Shown: positions 30,789-54,976 of the stretch, in pieces
How the letters are laid out: each line of letters opens with the position of its first letter
How positions within the stretch are numbered: the stretch's first letter is position 1
From: Candidatus Omnitrophota bacterium
GTDB lineage: Bacteria > Omnitrophota > Gorgyraeia > Gygaellales > Profunditerraquicolaceae
NCBI GenBank assembly: GCA_016208765.1
Contig: JACQXK010000032.1
Location: 54,385-118,384 of the forward strand
Reading direction: 5' to 3'
DNA length: 64,000 nucleotides
Notes under the pieces: model-generated
The model's database searches: none
What the model saw: only the letters and a program-made list of their open reading frames with translations
What the model was told of the DNA's origin: nothing
Made by a program: the position numbers and the translations under genes

Positions 30789-30845
30789 AATGTCATTCAC
30801 TAACTCTGAGTAAAATATTATAGCAGAACCTGTAAATAACGCAAA

Positions 30846-44523: not shown

Positions 44524-44862
44524 TTATTCTATCCCGCAGCGAGATTTAATTTCCTGAATCTTTTTATCAATATCCTGATTATATTCTCCTGCAGCAACTT
44601 TTGCCCGGTCAGAATAATCGCCGCTTAAGATACCTACAACTGCAGCTGTGGGAAAAACCATTGCCCCGCTTGCCCTAACCTGCTCGGCCACAGAATTCTT
44701 TTCGTTCTCAAGAGTCATAACATCCTCTTTAGCCGTAGAGCAGTTAATCGGCTTTTCAAGAGATTCCTTAGACTGAATGGAAACTGTCTTACAGCCGCAC
44801 AAAACAAGAAATACAAAAGGTATAACAGAAAACCTGGCAAATTTCATCTGCAAATCTTTCAT
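44524..44862 (-). CDS. Small hypothetical lipoprotein
   Basis: Lipobox LVLCGC. ~90 aa mature protein. Confidence 0.4.
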   Translation of the reverse strand: MKDLQMKFARFSVIPFVFLVLCGCKTVSIQSKESLEKPINCSTAKEDVMTLENEKNSVAEQVRASGAMVFPTAAVVGILSGDYSDRAKVAAGEYNQDIDKKIQEIKSRCGIE

Positions 44863-44883
44863 AGGCTTATCTTTAACCCGGAA

Positions 44884-45318
44884 TTAATCAACCTTCTGCG
44901 CCGTTAAGAATATGGATTTTCCTAAGGCGTTAAAGAAATCCTGGTATGTTTCGGGATCTTCCACAGACTTAATCCCATATTGGGCATTCGCCCTTACCAA
45001 TAGCTGCTTTTCTCCCCGGGGCCTGACAGTCACGGTCATGGTCACGACCATATTGTTTGTAAACTTGGTCCCGGTTACAGAACCAAGCGTCAAATCCGCT
45101 TTTTCAATTATAAAATCCAGGTCCTGCATAGTGCTAATTACGGTCCGCATCATTTTCTCTTTATCGGAAGTATCAAAAGCCCTTGTCTGGATGCTTCGTA
45201 ATTGCACCTGGCTCTCATCAGTCTGAAATGCCTTATTGGCGGTGCTCGCACAGCCAAATAAGCCCAATACCAGAAACAAAACTGCACAGCAAACCCAATA
45301 TTTCTTTAGTTTTATCAT
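44884..45318 (-). CDS. Hypothetical lipoprotein, paralogous to the next gene
   Basis: Lipobox LFGCAS. Shares QLRSIQTRAFDTSD...DLDFII...EDPETYQDFFNALGKSIFL with its neighbour. Confidence 0.45.
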   Translation of the reverse strand: MIKLKKYWVCCAVLFLVLGLFGCASTANKAFQTDESQVQLRSIQTRAFDTSDKEKMMRTVISTMQDLDFIIEKADLTLGSVTGTKFTNNMVVTMTVTVRPRGEKQLLVRANAQYGIKSVEDPETYQDFFNALGKSIFLTAQKVD

Positions 45319-45860
45319 ATTTTATGCGCCTCCAGAAAGATGGCCCTTGAGAGGCCGTCATAAAATTTCTGGTATATCTCCGGATCATTAATGGTTTCTA
45401 ATCTGCTGATTTGATTCGTCATATTCCATACGATCCTCTGGAAAGTGACCCTGACTACCGTGCTTTTTCCGTCAAGGCCCGGGCTTGTAATCACCGAAAC
45501 CTTAACCATCTGGTTTTTATCACACTGCGAAAGTGTATTTGAGCCGAGCAAAACATCAAGCAAGATAGCGCCAGCAATCTGCCCACCGTCTTTGGCATCA
45601 GCTTTTTTTGAAGCCGATACCAGGCCTAGTTTTGTCTCGCTGTCATCCAAAGTAAAGCTTAAGTCCTGCAAGACTCCGGCTACAGAAGTAATGATCTTAG
45701 TCTCGTCGGCAGTGTCATACTGCCTCATCTGCAACTGCCGTTTTTCCAGGCTATTCTCTCCCGGCTTAAGAAAACCCTTGGGAGCGCTGACGCATCCAAC
45801 CACTGCCAGAGACAAAGATATTACAAGCGATAGGCTTAAAATAACCCTTATTCTCTTCAA
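45315..45860 (-). CDS. Hypothetical lipoprotein, paralogous to the previous gene
   Basis: Lipobox VVGCVS. Shares QLQMRQYDTADE...DLSFTL...NDPEIYQKFYDGLSRAIFL with its neighbour. Confidence 0.45.
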   Translation of the reverse strand: MKRIRVILSLSLVISLSLAVVGCVSAPKGFLKPGENSLEKRQLQMRQYDTADETKIITSVAGVLQDLSFTLDDSETKLGLVSASKKADAKDGGQIAGAILLDVLLGSNTLSQCDKNQMVKVSVITSPGLDGKSTVVRVTFQRIVWNMTNQISRLETINDPEIYQKFYDGLSRAIFLEAHKI

Positions 45861-45869
45861 ATTGCCCCC

Positions 45870-46274
45870 TTAAAAGCTTGAGGAATGATACGCAAAATCA
45901 CGCACCTTCTTATCTGCGTCAAATTTAACAACTATGGTCAGCGTCCTCTGTGTTTTTGAAGTCGCTCCGGAAGAACCTCCCACGCTCCCAAATATCAACC
46001 AGACACCGCCGTCATTATTGGAGTACGTCACATCGGTGGCAAACTTATCATAAACCCATACTTCCAGCCTGCTCTCGTCGGTTGAAACGATATTCGGAGA
46101 ACCCAAAGCTTCAATGACCTGGGACGAAGGCATACCTATGCGAATTTCCCGCTGCACCTTTCCTACAGTTACTCTGTCTCCTGCGTCTGATTGCACTGCC
46201 TTGCGATGGGATTCAGGGGTAGAACAACCTGCCAAAAACAATAAAACAAGTAATAAATAGACTACTTTCTTCAT
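45870..46274 (-). CDS. BamE/SmpA-OmlA-like lipoprotein
   Basis: Lipobox LAGCS, then IRIGMPSSQVIEALGSP...TQRTLTIVVKF, matching the BamE fold signature. Confidence 0.55.
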   Translation of the reverse strand: MKKVVYLLLVLLFLAGCSTPESHRKAVQSDAGDRVTVGKVQREIRIGMPSSQVIEALGSPNIVSTDESRLEVWVYDKFATDVTYSNNDGGVWLIFGSVGGSSGATSKTQRTLTIVVKFDADKKVRDFAYHSSSF

Positions 46275-46448
46275 GATCCCTCCTTTTCTGAATTTAATGT
46301 TACCTCTAAATCAATAACCGGTCAAGTAAATTTCATGCACAAAAATCAGGATTAGTTGCCACCCATTCAACTGCTTGCTAAGATGGTGGCATTACACTAT
46401 CTAAACCGCGGAATAGATTCTGTGGATAGAGGATGTTTAGGAATATTT

Positions 46449-46925
46449 TTATGGCGAGCTTGTCTTTTGCAGAGACGATCTTGCTGGCACCCCCAGTAAA
46501 TTATCTAATCTTTCAAAGAAATCCTTTGCGATTCTTCCATGTTCTGAGGAAATACCGGAATCAGAACGGGAAAAGACATCTACATTAATATTATCTTTAC
46601 TGAACTCCGCAATTCCAATCCAGATTACATACTTTACTTTCTTTTCATTCAAATAAACTGCAATTATTAAGACATGAGAATCATCTATGCTATCTACATC
46701 TTCTACTACACAATTATTAACATCAGAAATAGCCTCTGTGGCGGCGTCAACAACTTTAGCTAAAGAAGCTTTATAGTAATGTGTTCTCAAAACCTGACTC
46801 TCTGTTGTCAAACTTGAAAATGATGAAGAATAGAAGGAAGCGCATCCGCTAGAACAAAATAGGAATAAAGACAAGACCAATACTTCTTTAGTACCCCTTC
46901 TTTGAAAGCGATTCAAAAAAATCAC
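46449..46925 (-). CDS. Hypothetical lipoprotein
   Basis: Signal peptide and lipobox SSGCAS. No recognisable domain. Confidence 0.35.
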   Translation of the reverse strand: MIFLNRFQRRGTKEVLVLSLFLFCSSGCASFYSSSFSSLTTESQVLRTHYYKASLAKVVDAATEAISDVNNCVVEDVDSIDDSHVLIIAVYLNEKKVKYVIWIGIAEFSKDNINVDVFSRSDSGISSEHGRIAKDFFERLDNLLGVPARSSLQKTSSP

Positions 46926-48306
46926 CTCCTATTCTTACTTTCTTAGTTAGCCCCTTTTCGTAACCAAGAAATTTACGCAGAGTCTTTTCAATAATCCAAT
47001 CATCGTCTATAACTCCATCCCCAAAAGACACAATCTCGCCATCCCTATTTTTTTTGACTGAATAAAAATTCAATCTAGAGTATCTCCACAGTGTAGCTTC
47101 TGGAGGCGAAGCTTCCAATACTCCCCCAAATAATAATGCAGATCCGGAATTCTTTTTGCAAACATTGACAATATAATCAATCCTAAGTCCTACTTCTTGT
47201 TTTGTTTCCCTATAAGAACCATAACTACTAACACTGTAAGACTTTGTTCTCCCAACATAAGCAACAACCAATATTTCATCAATGCCATACTTACGTAAAG
47301 TTAGCTCTGATATCTCATTATCTTTCATATCCACAAATTGGTATCGTGCCGGTGTTAAATTAAGGACAACGTAACCCTTTTCTAGAAAGTAATCTTCTAT
47401 CTTTTCTGATAATATATAGGAAATATCATTGAGAAACGGGACATTTCCTTCTCCCTCAAACCATTTCTGAGGAGAAAAGTTAGCCAAGTATTTACCTTCT
47501 TTTACGTGGTAAGTAACCAAATATCCATAGCGTTCAGCTAATGTATCTTCGGGAAATGTCGGCTTCAGCAAGAAAAAAGCATTAGGTTTAACCGAAGCAG
47601 CATTAGGGAAACCGAAGAATCTATAAACTAAAATTGCGATTTTCTTTTTACTCCCAGGATTACCTTTTACTTTAAGCTCACCCAGAGCCTTAACCGGATC
47701 ATCCCAAAGCCCGTGATTCATCTTTTCCTGACCTTCGGATATGACCTTACCATTAACCATTGTATATTTATACTTTGGCTCCGAAGGAACTTTGTAATCA
47801 GAAGAAGTCCCATCAGGCAAAATCGTCACTAATAACTTTCCGGAATCATAATCCTTTTTAACAAAATCAAGGACTCGATTTTCATGATCTGCAACTGTGG
47901 AGGGATCTACAATAATAGAGGCAGGAAAAGTAGAAAAATAATTCGCCACTATGAAACCGTTTTGAGGTAAAGAAAATTGGACCCAAGCTAAATCAGCATC
48001 CCATCCTCCGAATAACATCTTTTTAGCTTCCTCAATATAAAATTTAACAATAATATCCGCATTTTCTTTATCATCAACCAGCTCAAAACCTATATCTTTT
48101 AATTTACTTGCACATCTTTGCCTAAAATCATCTTTTTCCGATTCTTGCAAAGGCTTAACCAAGGGCAGAGGCACCCAGTGGAAATTATATTCTAAATATG
48201 CTTTTTTAAAATCTTTTAAAGCCTTATCTTGAGCAAAAGATGAATGTAAATAAAATAAATTTATCATTACTAATATAGGAATAATTATTTTTAGTTTTCT
48301 ATTCAT
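46888..48306 (-). CDS. Secreted hypothetical protein (472 aa)
   Basis: Signal peptide; no recognisable domain. Confidence 0.4.
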   Translation of the reverse strand: MNRKLKIIIPILVMINLFYLHSSFAQDKALKDFKKAYLEYNFHWVPLPLVKPLQESEKDDFRQRCASKLKDIGFELVDDKENADIIVKFYIEEAKKMLFGGWDADLAWVQFSLPQNGFIVANYFSTFPASIIVDPSTVADHENRVLDFVKKDYDSGKLLVTILPDGTSSDYKVPSEPKYKYTMVNGKVISEGQEKMNHGLWDDPVKALGELKVKGNPGSKKKIAILVYRFFGFPNAASVKPNAFFLLKPTFPEDTLAERYGYLVTYHVKEGKYLANFSPQKWFEGEGNVPFLNDISYILSEKIEDYFLEKGYVVLNLTPARYQFVDMKDNEISELTLRKYGIDEILVVAYVGRTKSYSVSSYGSYRETKQEVGLRIDYIVNVCKKNSGSALLFGGVLEASPPEATLWRYSRLNFYSVKKNRDGEIVSFGDGVIDDDWIIEKTLRKFLGYEKGLTKKVRIGGDFFESLSKKGY

Positions 48307-48451
48307 ATAAATTTACTCCAGCAAGACATGTTATAGAGTTAAAACAAGAAAAAAAGAATACTCGGGAATGATAGTAGATAGTCCGAAGAACATGGATGAA
48401 ATTTTTGACACCTTGGAGTGGCAGAATATCCACAGTATGCTACTACAAATG

Positions 48452-48485
48452 AAAAATGCCGAGGGAGGGAATCGGACCCCCCACG
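48452..48485. repeat. 35-nt direct repeat copying the 3' end of tRNA-Phe (att-like footprint)
   Basis: aaaaatgccgagggagggaatcggaccccccacgc is identical to 48608-48642, which covers the T-arm and acceptor 3' strand of the tRNA plus a 5-nt trailer. Confidence 0.6.
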
Positions 48486-48502
48486 CGTCGCTCGCGCGAC
48501 TC

Positions 48503-48590
48503 GCTCCTTAAGAGGGGGCAGGCCCCCTCTTAATATTCTCCCCCAAACGTGGGGAAACTTTTTCCCCACACCCCTTTGGCGTGGGGTGTC
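48503..48590. repeat. Hairpin repeat element R1 (aagagggggcaggccccctctt ... tttttccccacaccccttt)
   Basis: Shares a 29-nt and a ~20-nt block with a second copy at 48770-48840. Confidence 0.5.
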
Positions 48591-48613
48591 TCAACTAACT
48601 TGCTTTTAAAAAA

Positions 48614-48685
48614 TGCCGAGGGAGGGAATCGGACCCCCCACGCCGGCCTTTTCAGGGCCGCGCTCTACCACTGAGCTACCTCGGC
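48614..48685 (-). tRNA. tRNA-Phe (anticodon GAA)
   Basis: Minus strand GCCGAGGTAGCTCAGTGGTAGAGCGCGGCCCTGAAAAGGCCGGCGTGGGGGGTCCGATTCCCTCCCTCGGCA forms a cloverleaf with a GAA anticodon. Confidence 0.8.
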
Positions 48686-48769
48686 TAAATCATTCACTAC
48701 AGCTTTATTTTTACTTATCAGTAAACTAACAATACTTATTAGTGTATCTTATACGTCTCTTAGAATCTA

Positions 48770-48840
48770 TGGACGTTCATTCCTTAAGAGGGGGCAGGCC
48801 CCCTCTTAACGCTCTAAACTAAATTACTTTTTCCCCACAC
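48770..48840. repeat. Hairpin repeat element R2 (second copy of R1)
   Basis: ttccttaagagggggcaggccccctcttaa...tttttccccacacccctttt. Confidence 0.5.
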
Positions 48841-49073
48841 CCCTTTTATGTTTTTAGCAATATTTCAAATTAATAGCTCTTTTATCCCGCAACGCGGGAT
48901 AATTGCTAAAAACATGTCATTCCCTACAGGTTATTCAATACTTTTAAGCAAACACATTAACAGCTTGAGCTTACTGAAAGTAAAACACATTCTCTTCTAT
49001 GCTTCGCGGATAGTTATCAAAAACCTTGTCGTTCGCAATCAATTTATCAAAAAACCAAACAACCTAAAACAGC

Positions 49074-49814
49074 TTAAAACACAACCACTATATTTTGCAC
49101 AAATTTTTCAATAAGAAAAGGAGAAAATATTAAATATTGCAAGAAAAACATAAATATCAAAATCTCCGGCAAAACCACCCCAGTGAAGAAATAGAACAGG
49201 ATTATCGCAAAAACTGAAATAGACACCGCGAATACTGGATAAACCATTGAAGAACAAAAAATCTTTTTGATCCCGTCAAAATTAGGGAATTTTGTTTTAG
49301 AAATCATTAAGTACGCCAAGATTAAGACCAGGATTAAGTACAACCCGGGCTTAGGCGGCAGTTGAGTATACCTTTTATACACCAGTATAAAAGAAGCCAG
49401 CACCCCTCCGCTTGCTGTTGTCGGAAGGCCGGAAAAACAATTCTTCATTTTACCATTAACAGAAATATTGTATTTGGCCAGCCTCCAGGCACTGCAGGCT
49501 AAATATATAAATAAAACCACCGTCGCCGTAATCTCAAAACGGCTGCAAATAAAAAAATACCCCAGGCTGGAAGGCGCAATACCAAAAGAAACCACATCCG
49601 AAAGTGAATCCAGTTCCTTGCCAAATTCGCTTGGCACCGGGTTTTTTCTTGCAACCTTGCCGTCAAAACCATCAAACACCACTGCCAAAATTATTGCCCA
49701 GCAGGCAAAGGTAAAATGTTCCTCAAATGAAAAAATAATTGAAACAAAACCACAGGCAAGGCTTAAAAGAGTTAAAATATTTGCCACATAATTTGCGAGT
49801 ATAGATGAAAACAT
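49074..49814 (-). CDS. CDP-alcohol phosphatidyltransferase (phosphatidylserine synthase-like)
   Basis: DGxxAR...GxxxDxxxD motif (DGFDGKVARKNPVPSEFGKELDSLSD) in a polytopic membrane protein. Confidence 0.7.
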   Translation of the reverse strand: MFSSILANYVANILTLLSLACGFVSIIFSFEEHFTFACWAIILAVVFDGFDGKVARKNPVPSEFGKELDSLSDVVSFGIAPSSLGYFFICSRFEITATVVLFIYLACSAWRLAKYNISVNGKMKNCFSGLPTTASGGVLASFILVYKRYTQLPPKPGLYLILVLILAYLMISKTKFPNFDGIKKIFCSSMVYPVFAVSISVFAIILFYFFTGVVLPEILIFMFFLQYLIFSPFLIEKFVQNIVVVF

Positions 49815-49932: not shown

Positions 49933-51469
49933 TTAGGCCTTCTCTCCTGCCTTTTTCTTTCGCCAGGCAATCTTTACTAATACCGCTAAAATCATAAACA
50001 ATAAAAACAGGCCTACTCGTGTTGCAAAAACAAACGGTTTATCTAAAGCAGAAACATTCTTCATAAAAATAACCGGCAACCATTCCTGCCAAAGCCACAT
50101 TCCCAATATGCAAAACAAAAACAAAGGCGTAATATATTTTATAATAAATTTATATATTCTTGGGATACGCATATCAGCGCCCTTATGCACTTCATCCCAC
50201 GCCTTTTCCATGCCAAAAACCCATGCAAAAAGAATTGCTTCTATGGTAGCAAACAAAACCAGGAAAAATGTCCCTCCCCAGAAGTCAAGCTCATCCACTA
50301 CGCCTCGGCCCAAAAAGAAAATTGCCGGCTGGCAAAGTATAAAAGAAACAATCCCAAAAATGGTTACTGCTTTCTTACGTCCGATATTAAATTCATCTTC
50401 AAGAAAAGAAACTGCTGGTTGTGCCAAGGACACCGCAGAAGTTATTCCTGCCAGGAATAATAAAAAAAACCATAAAAAACCAAACAAAAATGACAAAGGA
50501 AATTTTAATAAAACCAAGGGCATAGTTACAAAGCCTAAATTAAATACCCCGGAGCGCGCAATTGACTGGATATCCTGGGGCCCGAAAAAAACAAATGCCG
50601 CAGGGATCACAATGCTTGCGCCTAAAATAACTTCGGCTGTTTCATTTGTGCTGGCTGCGGTTAAGCCTGATAACGCCACATCATCGCCCTTAGAAAGATA
50701 ACTTGCATAAGTCAGAATCACTCCAATACCCACGCTTAAAGTAAAGAATATCTGCCCTGCTGCCTCAAGCCAGACCTTGGCTGATCTTAACGCAGAGAAA
50801 TCAGGATTCCATAAAAAACCGAATCCATTAACAATATTCCAATCCGGGCGCGCCGGATCAGGAGCGCCTAAAGTTACTACGCGTATCATCAGAATTATAC
50901 CAAAGATAAATAAAAGCTATCCCGCCTTTTATCCCGTAATAAATAACCCAGATATTTAAAACAAACGTCAACAAGAAAAAGAGATAGGCGGTATTTATCC
51001 CGTTAAAATGTTGATTCCTCGCCACACCCTGAAACCCCTGCAGAAAACTCTGCATATCAACCTGATTGCCGATATTCGCATACTTACCGGTAAGAGCAAA
51101 AAAACTATAAGCAAGGGTCCATGATTCAATAAATGTGTAATAGGTAAAAATAACCAGCGGGCCGAAAATACCAATTACCCCGAAGTATTTAATAAAGCGG
51201 TTCTTCTGCCAGACGCTGTGGAAAATACCCGGGGCGGTGCCATGCTCAAACCCGCCTCCATAACGGCCGAGCGTCCACTCAATCCACATCAGAGGGATTC
51301 CTAATAATAGAAGAGCAACAAAATAGGGGATCATAAATGCGCCTCCCCCGTTAGCGGCAGCTTTGGCAGGAAAACGCAGAAAATTACCCAGCCCGATGGC
51401 AGAACCTGCCACCGCCATGATTATTCCTAAACGAGAACCCCAACTGTCTCTTTTACCTGATTGTTTCAT
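49933..51469 (-). pseudogene. Neurotransmitter:sodium symporter (NSS/SLC6, LeuT-like) gene split by a frameshift near 50860-50890
   Basis: ORF 50858-51469 carries the NSS N-terminus (GLGNFLRFPAKAAANGGGAFMIPYF...). ORF 49933-50889 continues in another frame with the NSS core (VWLEAAGQIFFTLSVG...). Together they total ~520 aa, the length of LeuT. The shift falls in a T-rich run (gcttttatttatcttt). Confidence 0.65.
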
Positions 51470-52963: not shown

Positions 52964-54976
52964 TTATTCTCTAATCACCTGCCAAATTTTATCCAGATTC
53001 TTGCGCGCTTCCTCTTCCCCTCTCTTTGCAAATTCTTCTGCCCTATGCAGCTCAAGCCAGTTTAAACCAGAAGTATTCGGATGTAAAACCACATCTGCAA
53101 GCTGGGCCTCTTTAAGCGCAACCTCAGACTGCAGCACTTCAATGCTACTGAATATTATATCAAGAATATTATTTTTAAAACTATTTCTTATATATTCGCG
53201 CAGCCCAAACCAGCTTCTTTTCTTTATGTTGCCGGTAATACCGACCGAGATCTGGCCGCGAATTTCTTCATATTGGCGCAGGATATCTTGCCTTGAGGGA
53301 GTGACATTTACCGCGATAATTTTTTTCACCCCTATTTTAATTAAAGGCTCGGTAGGCAAGGGGTTAATGATCCCCCCGTCAAAAAGCATTTCTTCTTTTA
53401 TTTTAAATGGTAAGAAAACTCCCGGCATAGCGCAACTGGCCATTATCGCATCAACTAACAAGCCCTTTTCAAAAACCCGGGATTCTTTTCTTTTTACATC
53501 GGAGGCAACGATTTTTAGCGGAAGCTTTACATCATAAAAAGTTTTGTTGCCCAAGTGCCTATCCAGTAATTTGCGCAGTTTATTCCCTTTGATAAAACCC
53601 ATAAATGGCAGGGTAAAATCCAAAAGGTTCCAGATGTGCTTAGGCGCCTTAAATTCTTTAGTAATCTCAAGGATCTCTTCTGATGATTTGCCAATTGCCC
53701 ATAAGCTTGCAATTACAGAACCAATGCTTGCTCCCACGATTACATCTATAGGTATTTTTTCTTCTTCTATTACTTTCAAAACTCCAATATGGCAAAAACC
53801 ATACCCAACCCCCACCCCCAAAACCAAACCCACCATGCTTTCCCCGAGCTGGCGCGCGATCCTTCTTACAGCACGCGCATATTCGCAGACAGGCTCATCC
53901 TCAACTAACCGGTCGCAAGACTCAAGTTCAATTTTAGGAAGTGTGGCAAAAATATTTTTATTTAAAATTTCCACCTGCTCTTCATGAGTAAGCCTTGAAT
54001 GCTTGTATTCATTGATAACCACTTTTATTTTTTCTTCTTTAAAAGCAAATTCATCAACAAGCCTTTCAATTAAATGACGGGTCCTTTTTAAATCAACCTG
54101 CTCAGGGCTCGTCAAAATATGAATCACATCGGATTGATTCAGTATATTAAATATCGGCCTGTCCATCAATGAAGGAAGGTCTATGATCAAAAAATGATAA
54201 TCATTAACCAACAGGCTGATAATCCCCACGAGCCTGCGCACACAGATTTCATCTTCCGGCCTATAGTGAAAACAAACCAGGCCGATACCGGATTTAGCCT
54301 CCACCAGGAATTCTTTTACCAAATTCGGGTTATCAGCTGCCGAGTTTGACAGGTCAAGTATTTTGCAGCCGCTGAACCCTAATTTCTGCGGCAGGGTGTG
54401 AATTTTATCTAAAGGCAGGATATCAAGGATAACCACTGATTTATGCGTTTCTTTCTTGAGGCTCAACCCAAGATTCAATGCATAAATAGTTTTGCCTGCC
54501 TGAGAATATGAACTGAAAACAGAAATAATAGAACTTTCAAAAATTGTCTTCTGGTGCAGGTCTTTACGTTTAAGCCTTCGGGAAAGGGTTTTACTTAAAT
54601 CAATTGCCAGATGAGGCATCTTTCTCAAAAAATGATCAAAATCATCTTTCTTGATAAAAAGGATCACACAATCATTAATTGCCTGGGCAGTTACAGAGTG
54701 CGGCTCATTGGTTAAAAGAGAAATAATGCCGAAATATTTGGCCCGATGCAGGTATTCAAGGATTATTGCGTTACCAAAAGTATCCTTGCTTGAAATTACC
54801 ACCCTGCCGGCTAAAACACAATAAAACCCGCTTGGAGCATTGCCTTGTTCATAGATTATTTGCCCTTTTCTATATTCAAGGACCTCTGCCTTCTGGGAGA
54901 CCTGCTCCCGGTCCTCATCTGTTAGCTCGGAAAATAAGGGGATTTCCTGTAAAACAAGCTTGCTAATTTGTGCCAT
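52964..54976 (-). CDS. Cyclic-nucleotide-binding domain protein with a C-terminal patatin-like phospholipase (NTE-like architecture)
   Basis: N-terminal cNMP-binding fold (FYCVLAGRVVISSKD...). The central domain is a degenerate MinD/ParA-like region with no intact Walker A. The C-terminus carries patatin GxGxxG (GLVLGVGVGYGFCHIG) and GxSxG (GASIGS) motifs plus a catalytic Asp context (DGG). Confidence 0.7.
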   Translation of the reverse strand: MAQISKLVLQEIPLFSELTDEDREQVSQKAEVLEYRKGQIIYEQGNAPSGFYCVLAGRVVISSKDTFGNAIILEYLHRAKYFGIISLLTNEPHSVTAQAINDCVILFIKKDDFDHFLRKMPHLAIDLSKTLSRRLKRKDLHQKTIFESSIISVFSSYSQAGKTIYALNLGLSLKKETHKSVVILDILPLDKIHTLPQKLGFSGCKILDLSNSAADNPNLVKEFLVEAKSGIGLVCFHYRPEDEICVRRLVGIISLLVNDYHFLIIDLPSLMDRPIFNILNQSDVIHILTSPEQVDLKRTRHLIERLVDEFAFKEEKIKVVINEYKHSRLTHEEQVEILNKNIFATLPKIELESCDRLVEDEPVCEYARAVRRIARQLGESMVGLVLGVGVGYGFCHIGVLKVIEEEKIPIDVIVGASIGSVIASLWAIGKSSEEILEITKEFKAPKHIWNLLDFTLPFMGFIKGNKLRKLLDRHLGNKTFYDVKLPLKIVASDVKRKESRVFEKGLLVDAIMASCAMPGVFLPFKIKEEMLFDGGIINPLPTEPLIKIGVKKIIAVNVTPSRQDILRQYEEIRGQISVGITGNIKKRSWFGLREYIRNSFKNNILDIIFSSIEVLQSEVALKEAQLADVVLHPNTSGLNWLELHRAEEFAKRGEEEARKNLDKIWQVIRE

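Follow-up and report, generated by a model that had tools for sequence, protein, structure and literature searches.

In a 64,000-nt stretch of the genome of a Candidatus Omnitrophota bacterium (assembly GCA_016208765.1, contig JACQXK010000032.1, forward-strand positions 54,385 to 118,384; below, the window), the 3′ end of a tRNA-Phe gene occurs twice, and the two copies enclose 122 bp of structured DNA. Our preferred reading, to which we assign a probability of roughly 0.45, is that a small duplicative insertion without genes sits at the 3′ part of tRNA-Phe, and that it consists of a composite module belonging to a structured repeat family found beside tRNA genes of Omnitrophota. The occupant is best read as a miniature, non-autonomous, att-like module tailored to its tRNA, and as no decayed island. 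Duplicative insertion is favoured because the geometry is att-like and because occupancy of the site differs between genomes. Partial tRNA copies are routinely taken as integrase scars that delimit islands. That rule misleads here: the repeats bracket the 122-bp structured repeat only, and the genes at this locus that were probably acquired lie outside the repeat pair.

The repeat pair at tRNA-Phe and its insert

The 72-nt tRNA-Phe(GAA) gene is intact, has no encoded CCA, and is 100% identical across ~40 Omnitrophota loci. Each copy of the direct repeat spans 35 nt and covers the variable loop, T-arm, 3′ strand of the acceptor stem and discriminator (30 nt, tRNA positions 44 to 73) plus a TTTTT trailer. 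The copies match perfectly; the proximal one belongs to the intact gene, and the distal one is a tRNA 3′ fragment without the 5′ part (Table 1). No match arose in 100 shuffles with up to 3 mismatches allowed, and a search for a third copy at the same tolerance found none. An earlier note on this DNA had reported the duplication from the letters alone; it is real, although its coordinates were off by one. The copies can be regarded as equivalent to attL and attR, since the proximal part leaves the gene whole and the displaced end is represented by the distal copy.

Read along the tRNA strand, the tRNA is followed by an 18-nt spacer, an inverted copy of tRNA positions 44 to 56 (variable loop and T-stem 5′ strand), a core with the hairpins P1 and P3 (unit A), a leader ending in ..GAGCGAC, and then tRNA positions 44 to 73 with TTTTT. 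The inverted copy is placed just 5′ of the core, from which the variable second hairpin, P2, is deleted. At the other end, the leader-like segment is fused directly to tRNA position 44. The motif GCGA(A/G)CGAC, which abuts tRNA +1 at other loci, thus adjoins the tRNA fragment in the window. Spacer, inverted copy, core and leader lie within the 122 bp (48487-48608) that separate the two 35-nt copies.

A second copy of the hairpin element, unit B, lies upstream of tRNA-Phe and is of full length apart from an internal deletion. Its parts are a long AT-rich hairpin, the 5′ half of P1 and, past the deletion, P3, an AT-rich stretch and a leader. A profile built from class-2 elements (see below) matches the window at 48920-48828 and 48825-48691 (unit B) and at 48581-48500 (unit A). 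Its one further match in the 64 kb was marginal (E 0.004) and fell on the strand opposite to the palindromic P3 hairpin of unit B. A hairpin element had been described as occurring on both sides of the tRNA, and so it does, but as two separate perfect blocks of 29 nt (48505-48533 / 48781-48809) and 21 nt (48557-48577 / 48826-48846) rather than as one continuous repeat; between the blocks the copies diverge, with 23 nt in one and 16 nt in the other. The upstream copy had also been counted as part of an integration footprint. It is instead the resident upstream element, which is intact in a sister genome (L093; labels of this form denote the sequences compared).

Units A and B have lineage-specific features in common, namely a CCTG loop and an AAGAGG stem. 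Because perfect blocks sit in otherwise divergent sequence and the copies share these features, the pattern suggests that the 35-, 29- and 21-nt blocks are maintained by gene conversion between copies ~270 bp apart. Next to unit B lies an extra partial unit, composed of GCGAACGAC and half of the long hairpin followed by another leader motif; L091 and L093 have this partial unit, and L001 does not. When compared with Rfam, the window copies returned only the tRNA and a chance miRNA-like match (E 0.13).

Occupancy of the site was compared among relatives. The syntenic L001 (GCA_020063045.1) has 84-91% DNA identity to the window, also put at ~88-90%; L091-L095 are short contigs retrieved through protein-cluster members, of which L093 is the informative one. 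In L001 a single tRNA-Phe is followed by a plain terminator and a gene for a 134-aa lipoprotein, with 125 unrelated bp, including a terminator, in place of window positions 46334-48604. In L093 the upstream element is intact (long hairpin, P1, P2, P3 and leader) and tRNA-Phe is again followed by a plain terminator. L095 has an L001-type leader, and as its contig stops within the tRNA it says nothing on the downstream side. Thus, occupancy varies among close relatives: L001 and L093 are without the module that the window carries, as the comparison of relatives proposed in the earlier note was meant to reveal.

Filled and empty sites are also found at a second tRNA. In both the window and L001, tRNA-Thr is empty, with a major facilitator superfamily (MFS) gene starting 12-13 nt past the tRNA. 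The corresponding site in L056 is ~160 bp longer, and the ancestral-type flank follows the distal copy. Set against the empty sites, L056 carries a ~160-bp duplicative insertion at tRNA-Thr.

The window comes from a metagenome-assembled genome (MAG); its pssA and 472-aa proteins are identical to NCBI entries for 'Candidatus Omnitrophica bacterium'. Two strain variants downstream of tRNA-Phe could have been joined serially at their shared tRNA end. An independent Logan unitig (L096) opens with the last 30 nt of the repeat and continues into CATTTGTAG and the 472-aa gene; it breaks exactly at the repeat, which shows a branch in the assembly graph. We give such an assembly artefact next to no weight and rejected it: a repeat of just 35 nt is spanned by ordinary reads, L096 contains the downstream junction, and the GAGCGAC/tRNA-44 junction has homologues, in the same architecture, in five other independent assemblies.

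Other identities for the fragment were ruled out. A split or permuted tRNA gene does not apply since a complete tRNA-Phe (63.5 bits) is present; a T-box-like leader would need a complementary specifier or NCCA-binding element, neither of which is visible; and a terminator function fails as there is no terminator-like site on the tRNA strand. The tRNA-Phe gene itself has the T-loop UCCGAUU, which puts C at standard position 55. To our knowledge, U (pseudouridine 55) is nearly universal at this position.

Table 1 Features of the tRNA-Phe locus, in window coordinates.
Feature	Position	Strand	Basis
tRNA-Phe(GAA), intact	48614-48685	minus	ARAGORN; Rfam RF00005, 63.5 bits
35-nt direct repeat, proximal copy (tRNA 44-73 + TTTTT trailer)	48609-48643	minus	repeat search
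35-nt direct repeat, distal copy (tRNA 3′ fragment without 5′ part)	48452-48486	minus	repeat search; downstream-flank junction in L096
Leader-like segment GGAGCGAGTCGCGCGAGCGAC, fused directly to tRNA position 44	48487-48507	minus	
Unit A core	48500-48581	minus	nhmmer class-2 profile, HMM (hidden Markov model) positions 74-190, E 5.5e-19; alignment, pair counts
Unit A P3 hairpin	48508-48533	minus	
Unit A P1 hairpin GTGGGGAAAAAGTTTCCCCAC	48549-48569	minus	
Inverted copy GACACCCCACGCC of tRNA 44-56	48578-48590	minus	inverted repeat I8, 13 nt, 92% complementary
Unit B, resident class-2 element upstream of tRNA-Phe	48691-48920	minus	nhmmer HMM positions 3-96 and 141-275
Unit B leader GTAGTGAATGAT	48689-48700	minus	
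Unit B P3 hairpin	48784-48809	minus	
Unit B long AT-rich hairpin	48848-48915	minus	
Extra partial unit (GCGAACGAC, half of long hairpin, second leader motif)	48923-49036	minus	
Segment without counterpart in L001 (unit A, fragment, 472-aa and 158-aa genes)	46334-48604	minus	blastn synteny, tblastn
472-aa gene	46888-48306	minus	window-specific
158-aa gene	46449-46925	minus	window-specific

The element family and its tRNA-linked composites

Further copies of the hairpin element, which the earlier note had proposed to seek in the genome, exist in metagenomes. Metagenomes were scanned with a pattern of the unit A core (CCCCAAACGTGGGG-N6-12-CCCCACACCCC), and the core, GGGGTGTGGGG..CCCCACGTTTGGGG, was found in 37 contigs, in two architectures (class 1 and class 2) and in composites (type 3). 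Class 1 (~20 contigs; loci among L054-L089) is a dispersed intergenic element of ~190 nt with the ends CTAGTGC..GCACTAG. Mostly co-oriented between genes, its copies show 80-100% identity amid unrelated flanks and have only the ~100-200-nt element in common; L058 and L078, for instance, are 100% identical over 166 nt. A U.G wobble on the tRNA strand is conserved in this class.

Class 2 (~11 contigs) consists of a long AT-rich hairpin, AAAA, P1 (GUGGGGG..CCCCCAC), GUUUGGGGGAGAACAG, P2, CGUU, P3 (a 12-bp hairpin), an AT-rich stretch and ..TTTACTT..CTATAGCGAACGAC. On the same strand, 160-230 nt downstream of the copies, come tRNA-Phe, tRNA-Thr(CGT), tRNA-Thr(TGT), tRNA-Met or tRNA-Pro, and the leader of the copies (..UAGCGAACGAC) ends 0-5 nt before tRNA +1. 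The motif GCGA(A/G)CGAC occupies this position, 0-5 nt ahead of +1, in ~18 loci. An alignment of 15 class-2 and type-3 cores yielded compensatory pairs in P1 (GC 8 / AU 7) and in P3 (GC 12 / AU 3). Where P2 is present it always forms a hairpin, the sequence of which is unrelated between copies. Both hairpin copies in the window are members of this conserved Omnitrophota family.

The leader is also seen at a second tRNA gene of the window. At 30790-30830, tRNA-Met is preceded by GCTATAAT..TTAGTGAATGACATT, the same leader motif as before tRNA-Phe and the long hairpin, and here the motif sits between a TATAAT box and tRNA-Met. Because it is downstream of the TATAAT box, it is a transcribed leader and not a -10 box.

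Downstream of their tRNA, type 3 composites are ordered as spacer or terminator, inverted T-arm piece, AAA, core, ..GAGCGAC and tRNA 3′ part. They recur at three tRNA species. Behind tRNA-Phe, the composite is present in the window (direct copy 30 nt plus TTTTT, inverted piece GACACCCCACGCC) and in three lineages besides (L037, on the same contig as L076; L075; L083), in which direct copies of 17-22 nt were exact in the scan and the inverted piece is GGACCCCCCACGC (11 nt in L037). Allowing one inserted base extends the direct copies of L037 and L075 to ~27 nt; the fragment in L083 is truncated. Behind tRNA-Thr(CGT), in L056, the direct copy comprises 31 nt from linear nt 43 and the inverted piece is CCCGACCC. 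Behind tRNA-Gly(CCC), in L085, these are 22 nt exact (~23 with the final T) and AATCGAACCG. At each locus, be it Phe, Thr or Gly, the inverted piece matches its own tRNA. The leader meets the tRNA piece at standard position 44 in the window and L056, at ~48 in L037 and L075, and at ~52 in L085.

This recurrence bears on whether recombination at a specific site is required at all. The tRNA-Phe unit could have been duplicated head to tail in situ and then have lost the long hairpin, the promoter-proximal part and tRNA nt 1-43. Such a history fits the order within unit A (core, GGAGCGAG.., GAGCGAC, tRNA part), which is colinear with a class-2 element and its tRNA. It also fits L085, which retains part of a ..ATAGTG-GTGAGCGAC segment, and L035, which has two tandem copies of leader plus tRNA nt 1-12 that span the tRNA boundary. 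In the window, TTTTTTAAAAGCAAGTTAG after the intact tRNA resembles the start of the long hairpin, TGTTTTTAGCAATTAT, and the CCTG loop and AAGAGG stem are common to both units. However, the same junction of inverted piece, core and leader would have to arise independently at tRNA-Phe, -Thr and -Gly, and tandem duplication does not predict an inverted piece that is specific to the tRNA. Decay of a tandem duplicate should leave idiosyncratic breakpoints, whereas the junctions observed fall at ~44-52 and the tRNA-matched inverted piece is always there. In addition, outside the perfect blocks unit A (GGAGCGAG) differs from unit B (GGAATGAAC) and resembles the copies of other genomes. We therefore hold local duplication to be unlikely, though well worth keeping in view.

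Alternatively, the composite may serve as a functional RNA device that is transcribed with or after the tRNA, with the inverted piece pairing to fragment positions 44-56 to close a multi-hairpin fold and the tail acting in processing, as a decoy or in regulation. We consider this improbable. No constant gene lies downstream (the window has one for a lipoprotein, L056 an MFS gene, and L075 a terminator), close relatives are without the composite, and minimum free energy folds favour other pairings. The window has lost the variable hairpin, L083 has a truncated fragment, and the window copy matches no Rfam family. These observations have to be set against the complementarity of inverted piece and T-arm, which co-varies with tRNA identity at three tRNAs, and against hairpins that are conserved with compensatory changes. 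A role as RNA would also suit the leader motif of mature tRNA 5′ ends, which is found ahead of the fragment too, and the 81-85% identity of unit A between the window and L037, compared with ~74-76% for coding DNA.

Integrases, known systems and the nature of the module

In the window, 20 of 62 open reading frames (ORFs), including all those on the plus strand and those adjacent to the tRNA, were scanned for Phage_integrase, Resolvase and transposase domains, and none was found. Between the repeats there is no gene because only 122 bp is available. The earlier statement that no integrase is present is thus borne out for the insert and the scanned ORFs.

Elsewhere in the phylum, recombinases do lie at tRNA-Phe. 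In contig JBAZJY010000002.1 (L014 7526-7597, L024 1-560), 78 nt separate the end of a tyrosine-integrase C-terminal domain (Phage_integrase, 49.2 bits) from a 20-nt tRNA-Phe 3′ copy with a terminator that follows it. An intact tRNA-Phe is on the same contig, and the element measures at least ~9 kb if the stored stretches are 8-kb tiles. From its sequence, this tyrosine-integrase element is a true integrative element in tRNA-Phe, and tRNA-Phe is by the same token a genuine integrase target in Omnitrophota. L003 (3299-6170) has a large serine recombinase (Resolvase, Recombinase and Zn_ribbon_recom domains) 195 bp past tRNA-Phe, followed by an ORF6N-domain gene. L009 (690-2874) repeats 39 nt of tRNA-Phe, from the anticodon loop to the 3′ end and with 1 mismatch, at a distance of 2.07 kb from the gene; the repeat brackets genes for an FkbM-type methyltransferase and a GT2 glycosyltransferase, without an integrase. 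Among the ~40 Omnitrophota loci, L003 (serine) and L024 (tyrosine) are the only ones with a recombinase downstream of tRNA-Phe, and the cargo there is very diverse. The conserved cold-shock (CSD) gene can lie as near to tRNA-Phe as 75 bp (L042) or as far from it as 5.7 kb (window).

The earlier note left a choice between a scar after excision and a tiny non-autonomous element. The second option comes near to our conclusion; the first does not stand, since the 122 bp belongs to the family of tRNA-upstream elements. In its fullest form, the scar would be that of a large integrase island or prophage in tRNA-Phe, deleted down to 122 bp, with the hairpins as leftover arms. A direct repeat of typical att geometry, the integrase element in tRNA-Phe of another Omnitrophota genome, the L009 repeat around cargo without an integrase, the serine recombinase of L003 and the highly variable interval between tRNA-Phe and CSD could all be cited for such a history. 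Nevertheless, the 122 bp is homologous to tRNA-upstream elements and to no integrase-bearing element (the class-2 profile found no match to the element in L024, L009 or L003), and further tRNAs and lineages carry this remnant with the same junction. Neither the tRNA core nor the element core has a match in IMG/VR, and a phage or viral origin was rejected on this ground. An island scar is accordingly very unlikely.

The att-type duplication proposed earlier is upheld by its geometry, in that the tRNA on the proximal side is intact and the distal copy starts in the variable loop and extends through the 3′ end into the trailer, but not as regards the insert, which is no island remnant. Tyrosine-integrase islands and prophages reportedly duplicate the tRNA 3′ end as attL and attR, with sublocations at the T-loop and 3′ end. 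The window locus resembles these in the extent of the repeat, from variable loop and T-arm to 3′ end and trailer, with the intact gene proximal. It is also like them in that the displaced end keeps the ancestral flank, occupancy varies, and the same tRNA is used by an integrase in L014/L024. It differs in that the repeats enclose neither integrase nor cargo and only 122 bp, and in that the insert is a conserved tRNA-flanking structured element with an inverted tRNA-matched piece, found at three tRNAs.

Cis-mobilizable elements (CIMEs) likewise have att-like repeats at a tRNA 3′ end, carry no recombination genes and move only with help. CIMEs, however, are decayed integrative and conjugative or integrative and mobilizable elements (ICEs/IMEs) that keep homology to their parents, whereas the module lacks homology to any autonomous element (no profile match in L024 or L003, 0 matches in IMG/VR) and has a universal structured core as its content. 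The module is also ~10-100 times smaller than described CIMEs.

Dispersed structured intergenic repeats, or elements like miniature inverted-repeat transposable elements (MITEs), include REP/BIME, ERIC, Correia and the Rickettsia palindromic elements. The present family is similarly short, hairpin-rich, gene-less and multi-copy, and class 1, in other genomes, has near-identical copies in unrelated flanks. Unlike such repeats, the tRNA-linked classes are placed to the nucleotide with respect to tRNA ends and bear tRNA pieces of 8-35 nt, direct and inverted, that derive from the target. Class 1 ends in CTAGTGC..GCACTAG. The inverted pieces of the tRNA-linked type come from the target and its duplication, at 22-35 nt, is atypical; no target duplication of the transposase kind was established.

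Class 1 bears a likeness to the Clostridiales-2 RNA (Rfam RF02937), an orphan motif (Weinberg et al. 2017). Both read GGGGGUG-hairpin-..GGGUGCUCAG-hairpin-CGNCGAAGGG on the same strand, and class-1 copies score 44.8-49.5 bits (E 1e-7 to 1e-9), all below the gathering score of 58.6. RF02937 gave no match to the window copies at E <= 1. In contrast to the motif, class 2 and type 3 carry GAGAACAG and the 12-bp P3 hairpin, the window copies read GAGAA(T/C)A where the motif has GGUGCUCAG, and unit A is without the second hairpin. The element is thus weakly related to Clostridiales-2. In the literature on this motif, the supplements of Weinberg et al. 2017 aside, we found no statement on function or tRNA association.

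If the locus is a duplicative insertion, the module would have been placed by recombination at the boundary of variable loop and T-arm, with a recombinase supplied in trans, or else by homology-anchored recombination on the invariant tRNA. A circular or tandem form would read ..GAGCGAC/GCGTGG..GGCATTTTT/TAAAAGCAAG. Transcription of the element probably proceeds along the tRNA strand and yields a structured RNA, either leader or trailer.

Several points weigh against this interpretation. Neither a recombinase tied to the module nor a free or circular form of it was seen, nor any excision junction. The module may be the stump of a second tRNA unit, since it is colinear with an upstream element, leader and tRNA. 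The association of core and tRNA is ascertainment-biased because most type-3 copies come from contigs picked for containing the core; in the unbiased set of loci, found by a tRNA-Phe pattern, only L037 has the composite, and L009 and L024 have tRNA-Phe 3′ copies without the core. The low-GC genes at 46449-48306 lie outside the repeat pair, distal to both copies. Finally, there is no explanation for how a mobile cassette would gain ends matched to three tRNAs.

A more far-reaching idea, which we regard as a long shot, is that the composites are undescribed miniature integrating cassettes, made of a universal structured core with target-derived inverted and direct copies of the tRNA variable loop and T-arm. 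As single-stranded DNA or as RNA, the cassette would form a hairpin from its two T-arm copies and so recreate the tRNA site, and a host-encoded or trans-acting recombinase would insert the folded cassette at the 43/44 boundary of the tRNA that matches its ends. Such folding would be analogous to integron attC sites and to the folded attP of the CTX phage. In a variant, the core would act as an RNA scaffold and the tRNA-derived 3′ piece as a guide.

True insertion units would amount to a very small tRNA-targeting element with tRNA-tailored ends in an uncultivated phylum, and would supply a genomic context, the flanks of tRNA genes, for an orphan Rfam motif. Even on a conservative view, the family points to an upstream element and a pre-tRNA leader (..UAGCGAACGAC, then +1) that are conserved in Omnitrophota, which is of use in annotating MAGs of this phylum.

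Neighbouring genes and further observations

The run of six secreted or lipoprotein genes (44524-48306) next to the fragment had been suggested to start ~30 bp past it and to be older island cargo. The actual distance from the distal fragment to the first gene downstream (ATG at 48306) is 145 bp. The composition check proposed for the run singled out two genes, encoding 472 and 158 aa, which have the lowest GC and the lowest GC at third codon positions (GC3) in the window (z ~ -2.1 to -2.4, for GC3 ~ -2.2 to -2.4; GC3 0.28-0.29 against a mean of 0.40). Their products are secreted or lipoprotein-like, and both genes are lacking in L001 by tblastn. The 472-aa protein is a near-orphan, with three homologues at 31-34% identity among 5.8 billion proteins. 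These two genes were probably acquired. The island-cargo proposal therefore has something to it as far as two window-specific genes of lowest GC3 are concerned, but they are outside the repeat pair, and the other four lipoprotein genes are found in L001. A third, degenerate att copy past the low-GC genes was sought and rejected (none with <=3 mismatches); the 46334-46450 region aligns with the L001 flank instead. The four lipoprotein genes and a PMT-family gene are common to the window and L001; distant relatives are without them and have the CSD gene near the tRNA.

Two further coding differences were seen beyond tRNA-Phe. An SNF-family symporter (window 49933-51469) is split into two overlapping ORFs of 318 and 203 aa, and its orthologue is a single gene of 520 aa in L001 and 475 aa in L091; the split is a frameshift, a pseudogene or an assembly error. 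The stop of pssA (49074-49094) gives a protein of 246 aa ending in ..EKFVQNIVVVF in the window, and one of 239 aa ending in ..EKFV in the near-identical strain L091 and the L001 group.

Other observations concern tRNA genes and modules in other contigs. In L062 (803-1017), a group I intron (RF00028, 55.1 bits; gathering score 50) interrupts an initiator-type tRNA-Met that follows a class-2 element, and L071 carries an intron-less version of this tRNA-Met. In L008, L009, L035, L038, L042 and L050, tRNA-Phe nt 1-13 (GCCGAGGTAGCTC) is repeated 50-165 nt upstream of the gene and is followed by a hairpin and GGATTCGCC..AAAGATTTA; L035 has two such copies in tandem. These partial copies on the 5′ side mirror the partial duplication on the 3′ side. 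A second module of ~165 nt, bounded by copies of TCCCTCCCTCGGCACCATTTCG, is present in L037 (4000-4200), L075 (1590-1760) and L083 (604-750). It ends in an acceptor-stem-like hairpin, GCCGAGA..CUCGGCACCA, and the order of modules varies between genomes.

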